The translations under genes were made by a program, and so were the position numbers. From Eledone cirrhosa (taxonomy: Eukaryota): a DNA stretch of 64,000 nt. Each line of letters opens with the position of its first letter. The first letter of the stretch is position 1. The stretch is from the NCBI GenBank assembly GCA_964016885.1, contig OZ024740.1, forward strand, positions 142,352,001 to 142,416,000, given 5' to 3'. The notes beneath the pieces are model-generated. The model searched no databases, was not told the origin of the DNA, and was given only the letters and a program-made list of their open reading frames with translations. Shown here piece by piece: positions 832 through 58,265 of the stretch.

Positions 832-882
<51 letters not shown>

Positions 883-884
<2 letters not shown>

Positions 885-1151
885 CGAAGGAAATGTGGTA
901 AGGAACCAGATGGACCATAACGCACCAAAGTACTCAATACTTGAGGTAGTAGAGTGGGTATAGGAACCAGTAAGACCCCGACGGCTGAGCTCAAGCCGTT
1001 TCGACGGCTAATTCTGGACTGAATTAGCCGTCGAAACGGCTTGAGCTCAGCCGTCGGGGTCCTACTCGTTCCTATTACCCACTCTACTACCTCAAGTATT
1101 GAGTACTTTGGTGCGTTATGGTCCATCTGGTTCCTTACCACATTTCCTTCG

Positions 1152-1153
<2 letters not shown>
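883..1153. mobile_element. Fold-back palindromic mini-element inserted in (TA)n, with hammerhead 3' half-site in both arms
   Basis: Arms 883-1014 and 1021-1153 are reverse complements (2 substitutions and 1 indel) around a 6-nt spacer tggact. (TA)n lies on both sides. GAAAC-ggct(tgagctc)agcc-GTC is at 1033-1055. Second copy at 58063-58265. Confidence 0.9.
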
Positions 1154-1203
<50 letters not shown>

Positions 1204-38999: not shown

Positions 39000-39072
<73 letters not shown>

Positions 39073-39294
39073 CGTTTCTGAATTTGTTTAGCAAGATTCT
39101 TTATCTGAAATCGTGTGTTGAAACCGATATTGTTATACTTTGGGAGGGTCATGTTGCCAATAAGAAACACACGCACCAGTTGCTTTCACTTCAATTTATT
39201 ATATATTTATAAATTTATAAATTTACAAATCTACAAACTTATAAATTTCTGGTTGGTTGGTTGGTTCCACAACCAGATAGTTGTTTATATATAT

Positions 39295-39339
39295 AGTCAT
39301 AGTCCTTTCGTCACACACTCTGTGACCTCTTCAGTGACT
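39295..39339 (-). ncRNA. Type I hammerhead ribozyme (left arm, minus strand)
   Basis: Mirror copy of 39490-39534. Confidence 0.75.
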
Positions 39340-39489
39340 GGGGATTCCTTTCTTCGTTTCTGTGCCTTTTCTTTCTTCTATCCTACGCCATTTTGTTTCT
39401 GTGTGTGTGTGTGTGTGTATATCCACACAGAAACAAAATGGCGTAGGATAGAAGAAAGAAAAGGCACAGAAACGAAGAAAGGAATCCCC

Positions 39490-39534
39490 AGTCACTGAAG
39501 AGGTCACAGAGTGTGTGACGAAAGGACTATGACT
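39490..39534 (+). ncRNA. Type I hammerhead ribozyme (right arm, plus strand)
   Basis: agtca-CTGAAGA-g-gtcaca(gagtg)tgtgac-GAAA-ggac-TA-tgact. Confidence 0.75.
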
Positions 39535-39723
39535 ATATATATAAACAACTATCTGGTTGTGGAACCAACCAACCAACCAGAAATTTATAAGTTTGTAGAT
39601 TTGTAAATTTATAAATTTATAAATATATAATAAATTGAAGTGAAAGCAACTGGTGCGTGTGTTTCTTATTGGCAACATGACCCTCCCAAAGTATAACAAT
39701 ATATATATATATATATATATATA

Positions 39724-39860
39724 GTAGAGAGTCAGGGCCCGACGGCTGAGCTCTTGCCATTTCGACAGCAAATTCCAGACTCGGGCCAAATTCCAGACTC
39801 TACTATATTTCCACTCTACTTCAGAAGTATCGAGTACTCTGCTGAATAATAGTCTCACTA
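39724..39860 (+). mobile_element. Degenerate relative of the 883/58063 palindromic family
   Basis: cccgacggctgagctcttgccatttcgacagcaaattc...ccactctacttcagaagtatcgagtactc follows (TA)n. Confidence 0.65.
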
Positions 39861-39872
39861 GTTTAAAACTGG

Positions 39873-45132: not shown

Positions 45133-48100
45133 TAGATAGATAGATATCTTTCTTTATTTGCCACAGGGGCGTACGAAAATGGGACATTACAAGACGTGAC
45201 GGCGGGGGTTTTACATAAAAATAACTTTAACATTAATAAATAACAATAAACAATATATAATAAAATAACAATTGAAATCCCCAATAGGGGGGAACGTTAC
45301 TGCAGGATTGTTTTACACCCCGTGGATAGAACAACCCTCACACCAGGAACACGTTTTGTAGGTGTTCCTGTCTTCCCTCTGTTTATCTTCCTCAACCTAC
45401 ATGTTTATATACAGAGAAGGCCCATTCACTCGGGCCATTTTTGCCACATTCACCCACCTTTCAGCGAATTTACTGGGGTGTAGCACCTCTCTCTCCACTC
45501 TCACCTTCCTTCTGAAGTGGTACTTAAAGAAGGGAATGAGTTGTTGTCAGGAGAGAAGGGTGTTTGCCCTCACTCCTTTTAACCTCGTCCACCATATTAC
45601 CTCTTTCGCCATAGCCACCAGACAGAGGAAAACCGCCTCTCTTTCGTTCTTAAATGAAGGTGGTGGGGTGATCCTCACGATGGACTCGGCTGACAACTGG
45701 ATGCGTCCCACACGTGACAGCAGCTGTTCGACATAATTCCACAGGTCTATCACCCCTGGGCACTGAACAATTGCGAGCAGAACGGTTTCGATGTCCTGCT
45801 CGCATCTTGGACAGGTCCTTTTGGCAGGATCTCTTCCAGTGCGTCCGTGTCTGTAGATTTTGTCTCGAACTGGTAGAGCTCCTCGGTAGCACTGCCAGGC
45901 CAGAGACTTCTGGAAGTTATCCATAGGCCCTGGACAGAAAGTCCTCCCGAACAGACTGGTCAGTTCGTCCTCCTCGATGCCTAGAGTTTCCTCGAGAACG
46001 TCATCGCACATATCCTCCACTAATCCCCTATAGAATGTCGAAGTGAAGTCTCCGCTGAATGCCGTTTCCGCTTGGTAGAGGGCTGTGAGCGCCTGTAAGC
46101 ACTCGAGGTGCTAGGCACCCATTTTCGGTTTTCGCTTGACCCAGGACTGCAGCTCTGTTAGTGAGACAAGTTGTGGAAGAGCTTGTCTCACAAACGACAG
46201 CCACACCGGTTCACCGGTCAGGAATACCTGGAGATGTCGTAGCCTCAGCACGTGTTTTCGCATCATCAGCCACGACATGCCCAGCCCTCCATTAGACGGG
46301 TGTTGACAGCAGATGGATCTCCTCACCTATGGAGCCTGTTTCTTCCAGAGGAACTTGAAGAGTAGGCGTTCCATTTTGGTAAGGTATTCGCGGGAGCAAG
46401 GCACGACTGTCAAGTGGTAGTAGATGACGGACGCTATGTAAGTATTCGCCACCTCCGCTCGACCTTTCAGGGAGAGTTTACACTCAGCCCACTTCTGGGT
46501 GAGTGCAAACACCTTCGCCGTGACCTCGTTCCAGTTCTTGTCCACCTGGAGGTGTGGACCAAACCAGACTCCGAGAAATTTCACCGGTCCTTCCGTCCAG
46601 CGTCCAACGACACTGTCGGAAGGCATGGGTTTGCCTCTCCAAGTGCCGAGTTGCAAACCGACAGACTTGTTTGGGTTTAGTCTTGCTCCTGTCAACGTTT
46701 CGTATTCCTGTAATAGGTTTGCCGATTACCCTGATTTCCGAGGTTTTCGACACCATTACGGTTATGTCGTCGGCATAGGCCAACGCTGCTTTCCGCAGTC
46801 CTGGTTCGATCGGGATGCCCTGCAACAGCTCCAAATTCCGCAGTAACGGCTCGAGTGTCAGTACATATAGAATGGAGGAAAGAAGGCATCCCTGACGGAT
46901 GGAACGCATGATTTGGAATGGTTCTGATAGGTAGCCATTCACCTTGACTGCCGAGCAGATGCTGGTGTGCATGGCAGCGATCCAGCCTCTGAAGACGGGA
47001 CCGAAGCCTAAATTTATCAGAGCCCTACCGAAGCCAGATTTACACTCTACCCTCTCTATGATGTATCGCATGAGGTGGAGGTTGTCGTGTATGGACCTGG
47101 TCTGGATTGCACACGTTTGGGCTTCCCCTACCAGGTTCTCGACGACAAGCGCTAGCCTTGCTGCTAACACCTTGGCCAAAATCTTTAACTCTGTGTTGAG
47201 CAGAGTTATGGGCCTGAAATTGCTTATCTCATCTCCCTTGTTCTCATCTTTCCTGATCAGCGTTACTACGCCTCTGCCTACAGAACTGGGAATCCTCCCG
47301 TTCTGCTGCAAGTTGCAGTAGATCGCTTCGAGGACGCCAGAGAACAAGTCTGTCATGCCTATGTAAAACTCATAGGGTAAACCTATGAGCATCTTCTATT
47401 TCGCCCGCTGTGATCGGCCTTTCGCAGTTCTCCTCATCTGTGCTCGAGAGTCGCGGTACGCCGTCGAGGTAGGAGCTGAAGTCCTCGCTCGATCTACCGC
47501 TTTGCCCGAACAGTTGTGCAAAATGCTGCTGGAAGGCCGTGCACATCTGCTTGGATTCAAGTATAATGCGTCCATCTTTGTCTTGCAAAGACCAAATTGT
47601 GGATTTGTTGCCACTTTTCGTCTCTGCGATTCGGGCCCAGCTAACAGCTTTGGCTCCCTCGTTTCTTAGAGCACGTGTTCTACTTCTGACAATACAACCT
47701 TCGTGTTTCACGTTGAAGAACTGGTCTAGTGCCGTTCTCGCCGCTAGCACGTCAGCTGTACTGCCATTCCTAAGTGCCGCTTCTATTTTAGTTATCAGTT
47801 CCTTTTTCAGTTTTGTTTTTTTCTAAAGCTACTTCCTTGCTAAATGCTATCGATTCTATTCTAATTGCTCAGGGTTGACTACGCAGATGACTAATTTGTG
47901 GTCTGAATATTCAACCATGTGCATTTGTGGACAGCTTAATGTTTCCTTATCATTCTGTCCAATTAAAAATCTATCTAAATACGATCTAGAAGACCCAGTG
48001 CGGTTGCTCCACGTCCACAGTGGTGCACTTGCGAAATCTAGTCGATATCTATCAGCCAGTTGGAATTGGCTGATGAGATTTTTGAGGCTATTACACCCCC

Positions 48101-49070
48101 CCCCTCTATTATCACAAACTCCTACATAGTCCCAACGTGCGTCTAAGGTGCTATTCCAGTCCCCCGCTAACACTAAGGAGCGAGACGCTCCCAGGAATGG
48201 CTCCAGACGATTGAAGAACTCTGGTTGCGATGTCCCAGTCGGGGCATATACGGCCACCAGTCTGAAAGCCCCACCTTCACTACCATTCACGTCCAGGACC
48301 ACCAGGCTGCCCTCCGGGTCCAAGTGAATCGTCTGTATTTTGAGATCCAAGTTTTTTCGAAACAGAACAGCAACTCCCCCTCCACCTCCTGGCTGACAGA
48401 GAGATACGTAGATCTCAAAATCATCGAACATGGGGCTTAGCTGTTGCTTGTCGTGAATCCTGGACACGGTGATGGCTATCACATCTATACAATGTGACCT
48501 GAGATCATTTAAAAACTGGTCCTGTTTCCAGGACATGCCCAGGCCACGTAATTCAAACATCCAGCTTGTATAGTCGCCATGTTGGTAAAGAAGAGTTAGA
48601 GAGAAAAGGCAGGAACACTTACCTTTTCGTTTCCTGGAGGTCGGGTTGTTCGATCTTCATGTCCAGATTGGTGATGTTTGGGGAGGGAGGGAATCCTTTT
48701 AGCAGGACACGGTTAAGGGGCTTTTGGCAAGGGGGGGGGGCACATCATGTGGGAAGTTCTCTTTTAAAGTTTCATACTGTAGGGTTGTTACCCTGATAAG
48801 TTTGAGGTTTGGGCGTGGGTCGTTGGTGGGGAAGGTTTTCCCTTCATTTTGTATTGTGGGGTCCTTTCGGACAGTTTCCACCAGTTCTGTGTTTCTTGTT
48901 TTTATGTATGTGTAATGTGTTTTGTTTTTTATGTGTACTGTTTCTGTTTGTAGTTTTCTTTTTGTGGTTGGGTTTGTGATTGTGGTGGTGTGGGTGTTTG
49001 TTTTGTTGGTGAAGTGTTTGGTTGTATTGGTGGTGATTGTGTTGTTGGTGTGTTTGCAGATCCAGGATCA
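45133..49070 (-). mobile_element. Tx1-clade LINE (5'-truncated, degraded)
   Basis: ORF2 ATG at 48580, APE domain (LAGDWN, SYLDRF, YSDHKL), RT (NFRPITLLN, IRQGC, YADD), C-terminal CPRC zinc motif, (TATC) tail at 45133-45146, Thr/His-rich ORF1 remnant at 48600-49070. Confidence 0.92.
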
Positions 49071-53967: not shown

Positions 53968-56900
53968 ATGGCTGTGTTGAGAGTGGGTTGCTTGAATACG
54001 CGTCGCCTGGGCGCAGTTTGGAAGCAAGCTAAGCTTCTAAATGACGTCAGGTCACGCGGTATAAATGTGATGGTTATTTGCGAGACCCGGATCAGCAGCG
54101 TGCGCCAACTAGCCCCCACCTTTGATAACTTTGAGATGCACACATCTCTCTGTCAGCCCAGAGGTGGCGGTGGGGTTGTCGTTCTGCTGCAAAAACATCT
54201 GCGTCTCGCCACACAGATGGTACACCTGGACCCAGAGGGTCGACTGGTGGTCTTAGACGTTGGCAGTGGTGAAGGTGGAGCCTTTAGGATGGTCGCCGCC
54301 TACGCCCCTTTTGGGTCAGCGCGGGCGGACTTCTTCCAACGTCTGGAGACTTTTCTGGGGACATCCCGCTCCTTAATTTTAGTGGGGGGCTAGAATGATA
54401 TCCTGGATGCACGTTGGGACTATGTAGGGGCATGTCCCGATAGAGGGGGGTGTAACAGCCTCAAGGGGTTAATCGACCGATTTGACCTGGCCGATAGATA
54501 TCGACTAGATTATCCGACTGCGCCAACCTGGACTTGGGAAAATCCCAACGGATCATCTAGGTCGTACCTAGATAGGGTCCTAGTTAGAAATAAGGCTAGG
54601 AACCTTTTAAGCTGTCCAGAGATGCTCATGATTGACTATTCGGATCACAAATTAGTGACCTGCTTAGTCAACCTTGATAGAACTCATAGACAGAGACCCG
54701 GTTACTGGAAACTGAACTTGTCCTTACTGGCAAGTAAAGTGTACAGGGACCAGATTAGTACTTTAGTTAAGGAGCGGTTGACACTTTGCCCGGTTGTTCG
54801 GGAGGGGCGGGGGGCCGGATGGGGATGTGGACTTCGGTCCATACCTCGACGGCCTGCCGCGTCTTTCGGACGAGGAGGCGAAGTCCTGCGAGGGGCCGAT
54901 TTCAGCTGCTGAAATAGGGGACGTGCTGAGCCAATGCGGCAAACGCAAATCCCCGGGTCTCGATGGTCTTCCATACGAACTATATCTAGCTATGCCGGAC
55001 TTGTTCTCCAATCTCCTCGAGGCGGTCTACTGCAACTGGCAACAGAACGGGAGAATTCCCTGTTCTGTGACCAAGAGCGTAATCTCGCTAGTGAGGAAGG
55101 ACGAGAACAAGGGGGGAGAAATAAGTAATTTCAGGCCCATAACTCTGCTAAATGCAGAGTTAAAGATGTTGGCCAAGGTGTTAGCAAAGAGGTTGGCGCT
55201 TGTCGTGGGCAACCTGGTGGGAGATGCGCAGACATGTGCTATCCCATCCAGGTCCATCCACGACAACCTCCACCTTATGCGATACATCATAGAGAGGGTT
55301 GGGAACGAACCCGGCTTTGGTGGGGCCCTGATCAACTTGGATCAATCTAAGTTACCTGGATGCGGTGCTAGCGGCGGAAGGTTTCGGACCCGTTTTCAGG
55401 GGCTGGATCATTGCCATGCACAGCAGCCGCATCTGCTCTAGAGTCAAAGTGAACGGCTACCTCTCGGAGCCGTTCGAAATCACGCGGTCCATCCGACAGG
55501 GGTGCCCTCTATCCTCCCTTCTGTATGTATTGGCCCTCGAACCACTGCTGCGGAAGTTGGAGTTGTTGCAGGGCATCCCTTTGGAACCAGGATTGCGGAA
55601 AGCAGTGTCGGCCTACGCCGATGACGTAACAGTAATGGTGTCGACCAACTCGGAAATCGGGGCGATCGGCACCTTACTGGAGGAGTACGAAAGGTTTACA
55701 GGGGCTAAGCTGAGCCAGGACAAGTCGATCGGTTTGCAACTCGGAACGTGGAGGGGCAAACCGATGCCCTCCGATGGCGTCGTCGGACGCTGGACGAAGG
55801 GCCCGGTGAAGTTGCTCGGGGTCTGGTTTGGACCAGACCTCCAGGTGGAGAAGAACTGGGGTGAGGTAACGAACAGGGTCTTTGAAGTGGGCCGAGTGCA
55901 AACTATCCCTGAAAGGTCGAGCGGAGGTGTCGAACACTTATATAGCGTCCGTCATCTACTACCGCCTGACCGTCGTGCCTTGTCCAAGGGAAACGCTCAC
56001 CAAAATGGAGCGCGCATTCTTCCAATTCCTTTGAAAGAAGCGGACTCCTTTGGTGAGGAGATCCATCTGCTGTCAACACCCTTCGAAAGGAGGGCTGCCG
56101 TGGCTGCTGATGCGTAAACACGCATTAAGGTTACGGCACCTCCAAGTATTCCTCACCGGTCAACCGGTGTGGGCCCCGTTTGTGAAACGAACCTTTCCGA
56201 GACTCGTCTCACTCAACAAGCTGCAATACTGAGTCAAGTAAAGACCGAGAAAACTGGGCGCCTGGCACACCGAGTGTGCCCAGGCGCTCAAGGCTCTCTG
56301 GCAGGCAGACCTGGCTATCAGTGGAGACTCCACCTCGACATTCTATAGAGGGCTGGTGCGCAGTAGGTGCGACGACGCCCTCGGAGAAGCCCTGGGCATG
56401 GAGGAAGATGAACTGGCCAACCTGTTCGGTAGGATATTTACCCCGGGACCTATGGACAACTTCCAGAGGTCCCTGGCCTGGCAGTGTTACCGAGGGACTC
56501 TGCCCGTTCGGGAAAAGCTCTACAGACACGGGCGCCCGGGTAGGGACCCCTCGAAAAAGATCTGTCTCAGATGCGTGCGCGACAAAGAAACCGTCTTGCA
56601 TGCATTGGTACACTTCCCGGGTGCCGCCGATCTGTGGGGCTATGACGAACGACTCCTGTCACGGGTGGGACCAATCCGAGTCCATTATAACGATCAAGCT
56701 GCCTCCCCCCTTCAAACATGAAGGAGAGGCGGTGTTTCTGTGCGTAATAGCCATGGTGAAAGAGGTTTATGGTGGACGCGTTTGAAAGGGCTGAGGTCGG
56801 AGACCTTTCTCTCCGACCAACAACTGGTCCTTTTCTTCCGATATCATTTCGGAAGAAGGATCAGGATGGAGAGAGAAGTGCTCCACCCCAGCCAGTTTTA

Positions 56901-58062: not shown

Positions 58063-58064
<2 letters not shown>

Positions 58065-58265
58065 ATAGGAACAAGTGTGACCCCGACGGCAGAGCTCAAG
58101 CCGTTTCGACGGCTATTTCTGGACTAGAAATAGAAATAGCCGTCGAAACGGCTTGAGCTCTGCCGTCGGGGTCGTACTTGTTCCTATTACCCACTCTTCT
58201 ACCCTAAATATTGAGTACTTTGGTGCGTTATAGTCCATCTGGTTCCTTACCACAATTACTTCGTT
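58063..58265 (+). mobile_element. Second copy of the 883-1153 palindromic element (core hairpin plus one tail) in (TA)n
   Basis: Hairpin at 58063-58189; GAAAC-ggcttgagctctgcc-GTC; tail with GAGTACT at 58213. Confidence 0.9.

Follow-up and report, generated by a model that had tools for sequence, protein, structure and literature searches.

Head-to-head pieces of a Hydra-clade Penelope-like element in (TA)n of Eledone cirrhosa, probably made anew at each insertion

Many peculiarities of Penelope-like elements (PLEs) are already in print: inverted ends, tails, the targeting of (TA)n and hammerheads with U3-A8 cores. How their inverted ends, tails and pLTRs are formed is stated as an open question in PMC8557442 and PMC2377424. 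In both characterised PLEs the TSS lies inside the pLTR (PMC8557442, section 10; PMC2377424). A lizard PLE protein nicks and extends both target strands in vitro, and two internal RT starts bound its tail (PMC11167929). The U3-A8 hammerhead variant is known from Schistosoma PLEs (PMC4209133), and an extra G has been described at complete, full-length 5′ junctions of L1 (PMC11702581). Junction palindromes have been explained by self-priming on an antisense template (PMC3846280). Heavy editing is documented for a lizard Penelope and a palindromic frog repeat, as are many perfect dsRNA loci in octopus, for which that text names no repeat (PMC5625713).

We here deal with a hairpin at positions 883 to 1,153 of the window, i.e., of the whole stretch of 64,000 nucleotides that was analysed. 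Taken as a whole, the most probable reading is that two short pieces of an autonomous Hydra-clade PLE meet here head to head within (TA)n; such pairs likely form afresh at each insertion, and their boundary is likely the capped 5′ end of the element's mRNA. No report of palindromic PLE stubs with a fixed stop was found in the literature searched; subscription papers, Repbase and bioRxiv supplements lay outside that search and may hold the family.

The hairpin, its parts and its neighbours

The initial annotation described a near-perfect hairpin in (TA)n, and this it is: arms of 132 and 133 nt, differing by two substitutions and one indel, enclose a 6-nt loop, TGGACT. As RNA, the 271-bp hairpin has a predicted fold of -258 kcal/mol (z -37.9 versus shuffles). 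It was also correctly seen that both strands carry the substrate half of a hammerhead only. GAAAC-GGCT...AGCC-GTC is present on both, with no CUGANGA near the hairpin, and each strand comprises the 3′ strand of stem II, GAAA, stem III, GUC and the 3′ strand of stem I. An Rfam scan of the window yielded no hammerhead among the best 150 of 169 matches. The features are:

835..882, no strand: (TA)n target, left flank, as read from the sequence
883..960, minus strand: left tail, between two fixed element ends; equals the right tail except for a 1-nt indel at the inner border
961..1020, minus strand: left arm, substrate half of the hammerhead, with stem II 3′ strand, GAAA, stem III, GUC (982-980) and stem I 3′ strand
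1015..1020, no strand: centre TGGACT, the head-to-head junction; the commonest junction (19/99)
1021..1075, plus strand: right arm, substrate half, with GAAAC at 1033, GUC at 1053-1055 and the usual short end TTCCTAT
1076..1153, plus strand: right tail, with the CTCAAG marker
1154..1201, no strand: (TA)n target, right flank, as read from the sequence
39724..39872, plus strand: degenerate relative, from a further family; a single inverted arm that stops at the A of AGTCT is followed by a duplicated piece and a tail homolog, then (ATA)n
58066..58265, plus strand: the 58063 copy, in the usual lopsided form; short inverted arm, then centre TGGACTAGAAATA, then long arm with tail

The two arms at 883 differ in origin. 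The left arm carries the subfamily tag CTTACTGG and extends to the A of AGTCC (1020), where the shared stop lies; the right arm carries CCTACTCG, the tag of another subfamily. The CTCAAG marker of the right tail accompanies the left arm's subfamily in 27 cases and the right arm's tag just once, so that the right tail was likely copied from the left tail or from the left tail's RNA. Judged by these tags, the 883 copy is a rare two-tailed chimera of two subfamilies. Arms with tags of two subfamilies occur in 4/82 copies, three of which are two-tailed. The TGGACT centre would fit a 4-nt ATTC microhomology if the parent was the TTCAGTCC variant, and a blunt join otherwise.

The second copy, at 58063, shows the co-varying changes reported for it, as the ctgag/cagag and aattc/atttc differences are present in both of its arms; such co-variation follows from both arms being copied from the same source. 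It was said to have the same layout as 883, which is incorrect: the centre region is common to both, yet the left arm at 58063 is short and the tail, the outer ~78 nt, is found on the right arm only. Its centre, TGGACTAGAAATA, has an insert that repeats the arm, and it belongs to the GAAAT subfamily. The third relative, at 39724, is degenerate indeed (81% over 52 nt), but it is not a palindrome; it has a single arm and a tail.

Further repeats are found in the window. At 39070-39710 a second PLE-type insertion of the same layout has perfect 279-nt head-to-head arms in (TA)n, an extension of ~57 nt on the left arm alone and a canonical CTGAAGA...GAAA hammerhead on both strands. Two long diverged repeats at 45699-48548 and 54001-56677, in opposite orientation and 71-84% alike, are probably retroelement copies.

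The parent element and its hammerhead motif

Copies that reach further upstream belong to an element that encodes, on the strand of the arm, a frame with RT and endonuclease. The proposed derivation from a PLE pLTR holds. The locus L177 matches 883 at 96% and has an intact 786-codon frame that begins in the pLTR. It is laid out as a partial tandem, an inverted truncated copy with a tail and a tailless far end, much as drawn for PLEs in PMC8557442. The frame is a single ORF, RT followed by a C-terminal GIY-YIG-type EN, with YRDD and YIGLT motifs. The RWK and DKT motifs read RLRWR (R for K) and SDKTG, the CxCX5C linker is CNCPDRSIC, and the CxxC and CxH beside E and N are CNLCSEE and LLNKKDELVTACKH; by eye, CCHH is absent from the ORF. 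Compared by eye with supplement rows of the Hydra-clade alignment, the ORF agrees with them. Pfam and PDB searches with it gave no match, and its 2219 homologs come without names.

Tandem units of the parent are spaced 3,528-3,546 bp apart (~3.5 kb; 3,118 in L177), which exceeds the <3 kb of the Hydra clade, a tendency rather than a strict rule. The tail is the beginning of the next tandem unit, and in the parent the sequence of the left tail continues into the 5′ UTR and the ORF. Matching full-length parents were found for the main subfamilies. On sequence grounds, the parent would be an autonomous Hydra-clade PLE of ~3.5 kb; we take it for a new Hydra family in which the dominant type of insertion is a well-defined by-product.

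Some arrays deserve mention. Four near-identical read-through junctions (L344-L347, G000:C1 91476610-91487263) lie 3,542-3,543 bp apart in apparently full-length tandem units, and a similar array is found at C1 437200347-437210966. Head-to-tail 257-bp units at L336/L337 (G000:C1 27009638-27009921) run from the stop to just inside the ORF and are retrozyme-like tandems without the catalytic core. At L085 a copy of the element adjoins frames which we take to resemble a Helitron Rep/helicase.

The pLTR of the parent contains a complete type I hammerhead motif. A hammerhead-containing parent had been anticipated and exists; its core, however, is the U3-A8 form UUGANAA and not CUGANGA. The precise form proposed, gacccc-CTGANGA-gacggc, was not among 60 matches, and the 20 loci inspected were chance hits or chimeras with other elements. 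Instead, ACCCC-UUGANAA-G..CGGCUAUU lies ~40 nt upstream of the stub boundary. The central hairpin had been placed where stem II would be. Its left strand is a reverse copy of the 3′ strand; in the parent, the true 5′ strand of stem II, CGGCTATT, is located ~40 nt further upstream.

The motif is predicted to fold into a type I three-way junction. In the alignment (A1; 55 of 56 copies, L081 left out) 96.3% of the stem cells are paired, G10.1-C11.1 is present in 55/55, and the GAAA and NUH rules are obeyed. The 3-8 pair is U3-A8 in 45, U-G in 2 and unpaired in 8; the core reads UUGANAA in 47, with a C3-A8 mismatch in 5 and singles in 3, and N7 takes all four bases. Stem covariation does not exceed that of shuffles in these copies, which are 90% identical. 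The full core is kept in 6,348 arms, as compared with 63,866 arms overall; the search patterns differ, and a core retention of ~10% is only a rough figure. A sub-lineage with C3-A8 (L130, L218, L234, L316) has been amplified, 21 of 100 listed cores reading CCCCTGA, so that hammerhead cleavage is probably not required; the prediction for this sub-lineage is a weak or dead ribozyme. Nor is the hairpin a likely substrate for cleavage in trans, as had been suggested: the parental enzyme half is predicted to gain 0.0 kcal/mol on the hairpin, as opposed to -11.7 on one arm alone.

The shared stop and the joining of the arms

In the genome (G000, 3.0 Gb), counted by exact patterns with reversed-pattern controls of zero, there are 13,731 short palindromes of the family, 63,866 arm 16-mers and 220 loci with tail sequence on both arms. 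The best matches to the 883 hairpin cover ~195 nt and not 271, and no second full-length match was seen among the 40 scored of 548 candidates. The common form is lopsided. Of 59 palindromes taken in chromosome order 58 are one-tailed, 1 is tailless and 0 are two-tailed; their centres are of 39 kinds, and which of the two arms is the longer varies. The tail of ~78 nt is the spacing of the two fixed outer ends, and (TA)n abuts both ends, at two fixed places, in 117/125 one-tailed copies. Insertions grade without a gap from stubs into full-length copies. Long arms have long partners: of 20 long loci chosen as singles, 9 had a partner within 5 kb, always a long one (9/9).

The account that we favour starts from what can be read directly, that is, the parent, its hammerhead motif, the two fixed outer ends, the shared stop, the varied junctions and the extra G. 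The mRNA would start within the stem II loop, either at T[T/C]AGTCC, which resembles an Initiator, or 4-6 nt before it; with such a start, its 5′ end would carry the substrate half only. The endonuclease would nick both (TA)n strands, and the RT would prime on both, one per internal start site, at +61 and +139 from the A of AGTCC. After ~60 and ~140 nt the two cDNAs would run off the RNA, in many cases with a C added opposite the cap, and their ends would then be joined, be it at microhomologies, bluntly or with short inserts. Long insertions would stem from the copy of these sites further downstream, or from a jump beyond the RNA end. The 883 copy would represent the rare case of two source RNAs and two tails.

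The stop is remarkably uniform in position, though not to the base. All 118 arms of the 59 palindromes end in the stem II loop, at most 12 nt into it, and most often at 0, 5 and 6. Of 101 position-ordered arms, 83 extend past the stem II 3′ strand by up to 20 nt, 2 by 21-44 and 16 by at least 45, some values (13) being inflated because mismatches were tolerated. An independent sequencing run shows a 15-20-fold step there: summed contig depth, which is not a copy number, amounts to 2.5-3.5 million inside, falls to 0.15-0.22 million upstream and is ~0.01 million downstream. This means that the stop is not an assembly artefact; the contigs of the run also have (TA)n ends. A 60-nt palindromic contig on both arm strands was seen in run X5 (record 19, organism B), at a very thin depth of 1.9. 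A sister family (566 palindromes) stops at the homologous A of TTAGTTC, which 9 of 100 listed arms pass (by eye; context from L062).

The base before AGTCC in the parent is T in 57 and C in 12 cases. Both arms have a non-templated G before the stop at 263 loci, both an A at 8. The extra G is found in 14/25 arms that end at the A of AGTCC and in 9/53 that end elsewhere (Fisher p 0.001); G versus A alone in that arm sample is 14:8 (p 0.14). Templates are also changed here: of 30 read-through matches, four loci (L336/L337, L338, L339 and L341) have the 5′ UTR joined straight to the stop, as by a jump to a new template; 15 of the 30 show continuous pLTR. From the fixed stop, the extra G, the template jumps and the precedents in PLEs and L1 we infer, with reasonable confidence, that the stop corresponds to the capped 5′ end of the element's mRNA.

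Some observations sit less well with a cap. Arm ends are spread over 0-12 nt instead of falling on a single base. Of the first 50 double-G junctions, examined by eye, 37 read CAG, CTG, CCAG or CTGG and 13 otherwise; the 37 could be due to re-priming on the arm's own CCAG, for which no cap is needed. The Initiator consensus, with which the T[T/C]AGTCC at the stop is compared, is loose, the site TTTTCATTTAG can also be read as a splice acceptor, and in the sister family the signal of the G is ambiguous. In D. virilis, moreover, the Penelope TSS lies upstream of the hammerhead, unlike here (PMC2377424 with PMC4209133). It has to be considered that the same two-cDNA by-product is made from a longer RNA on which the RT is blocked by the stem II fold or by a bound protein, or which is given its end by processing at the splice-acceptor-like AG. 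Stem II is indeed predicted to be long and to contain an inner hairpin, and the stop falls in the loop of this stem; the spread of ends over 12 nt, the re-priming and TTTTCATTTAG suit a block as well. The stops, however, are located in the loop rather than at the base of a stem, and the sister family stops at the homologous A though its loop differs. Also, ~13/50 double-G junctions have no re-priming reading, which corresponds to roughly 68 of 263, compared with 8 for A, and the template jumps occur at the same place. We consider a block unlikely, if still the most serious competitor of the capped end.

How the arms are joined was analysed in 140 palindromes, the 59 chromosome-ordered ones, 33 selected for both arms at the stop and 48 others. 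They have 77 distinct centres, 55 of them seen once; 60 junctions show microhomology, 55 inserts, and 25 are blunt. Every recurring centre of at least 14 nt is a simple join at the shared stop with at most a 1-3-nt insert. Recurring centres occur across several subfamilies and in both polarities, and no complex junction was common to several loci of the sample. The palindromes, in short, very likely arise de novo at insertion. Arms are more alike within than between copies, with 2.3 versus 5.7 differences over 52 nt (132/140 palindromes). Their subfamily tags are concordant in 78/82, with 26% expected, so both arms usually derive from one source. Four insertions (L029, L038, L042 and L044) are chimeric: the head-to-head partner of an arm of this family comes from another family with a hammerhead, which suggests two different RNPs at one target. 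A weak point of the two-cDNA account is that for 11/20 long singles no partner was found within 5 kb.

The initial annotation had the palindrome propagate as such, i.e., as a non-autonomous PLE parasite copied from palindromic RNA. The 13,731 loci, the likeness of the arms within a copy and the recurrence of the AGTCCA/TGGACT centre (19/99) would fit, and some re-copying may occur, since both RT start sites survive in a one-tailed stub. The 77 centres with their 55 singletons, and recurring ones that amount to joins at the stop in several subfamilies and both polarities, speak against it. So do the continuum from stubs to full length, the existence of full-length parents, the chimeric nature of 883 and the lack of a second full-length match to it among the candidates scored. 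A mobile palindrome therefore has little probability.

Slightly less probable still is an origin from one cDNA, which either snaps back at stem II, as initially proposed, or self-primes on an antisense template to make the inverted arm, as described for rotifer Penelopes (PMC3846280). ATTC-TGGACT-GAAT does allow a 4-bp hairpin where the parent reads TTCAGTCC, and the arms are usually of one haplotype. Yet more parent sequence is found in the tail arm in 40 copies, in the short arm in 42 and within 1 nt in 43 (n=125). A single snap-back does not predict such a polarity and is largely refuted by it. The extra G often occurs on both arms, and in 4/82 copies the two arms stem from different subfamilies; self-priming, too, is at odds with the polarity and with the G on both arms. 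Finally, a MITE of an ordinary DNA transposon, with long TIRs and duplications of TA, for which the 883 copy alone looks symmetric and TA-flanked enough, was already doubted initially and can be dismissed: ends are unequal in 58/59 palindromes, equal TIRs are not seen across copies, and the sequence is the pLTR of an RT-encoding parent.

If two cDNAs run off one RNA end, the stubs might even be fossil strong-stop cDNAs. This idea is tentative. The pLTR would then be organised like an LTR: its promoter would precede the stem II loop, a repeat of ~40 nt would lead from the start site to the hammerhead cut, and the two RT start sites would come next. A run-off cDNA would either meet its twin, which gives the palindrome, or jump to the 3′ repeat of the RNA, thereby rebuilding the pLTR. 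Such a strand transfer, if true, would supply the rebuilding step for which PMC2377424 offers no obvious mechanism. The by-product would be tens of thousands of near-perfect hairpins in a 3-Gb genome, a possible feed for A-to-I editing.

The two-cDNA run-off, if right, would show how PLEs build inverted ends. A stop at one place and a likely cap signature on both arms lead to base-level predictions for the start site and for an in vitro system. A retrotransposon can, furthermore, mass-produce MITE-like palindromes that annotation could misfile. The suggestion of a dsRNA source stands as far as modelling goes: if transcribed, the hairpin RNA would be fully paired and the palindromes would offer a large pool of perfect dsRNA substrates. 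A role of the hairpin as dsRNA is possible.

Comparison with known systems

The non-LTR retrozymes (bioRxiv 10.64898/2026.07.22.740005) are likewise non-coding, hammerhead-bearing derivatives of PLE pLTRs. They are head-to-tail tandems with whole ribozymes, whereas we deal with head-to-head halves that lack the catalytic core, and the stubs are not retrozymes. The Cercyon PLE hammerheads of Schistosoma (Cervera and De la Pena 2014, PMC4209133) share the U3-A8 core, the truncation of most copies and the pairing of motifs on opposite strands at distances of 100-700 bp. The Schistosoma motifs are minimal and lack helix III, in contrast to a 5-bp helix III and a long stem II here, with stubs devoid of the core.

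A further comparison is with the Hydra-clade PLEs, including Hydra-1_Obim (Craig et al. 2021, PMC8557442). Common to both are the C-terminal EN, DKT, the CxCx5C linker, CxxC and CxH around E and N, and also (TA)n targets, a pLTR hammerhead, an inverted 5′-truncated copy and a tail at one end. The unit here is ~3.5 kb and not <3 kb, the tail ~78 nt and not 30-40; the core is U3-A8, and most insertions are cut at one fixed place. By eye, in the supplement rows, Hydra-1_Obim is a different family, and its hammerhead is another.

The Poseidon element PAc of Anolis (Frangieh et al. 2024, PMC11167929) resembles the present one in several respects. Two fixed ends at the pLTR-ORF junction define its tail, targets are AT-rich, both strands are extended, and hammerhead activity is dispensable in vitro. 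In the present family, the first ATG follows both sites. The main text of that report describes neither a run-off from the 5′ end of the RNA nor a head-to-head join or an extra G. In L1 twin priming (PMC11702581), likewise, both target strands are primed, inverted pieces are joined at microhomology and complete 5′ ends have an extra G. The L1 cDNAs copy adjacent parts of the RNA; here both copy the same part, which gives a palindrome.
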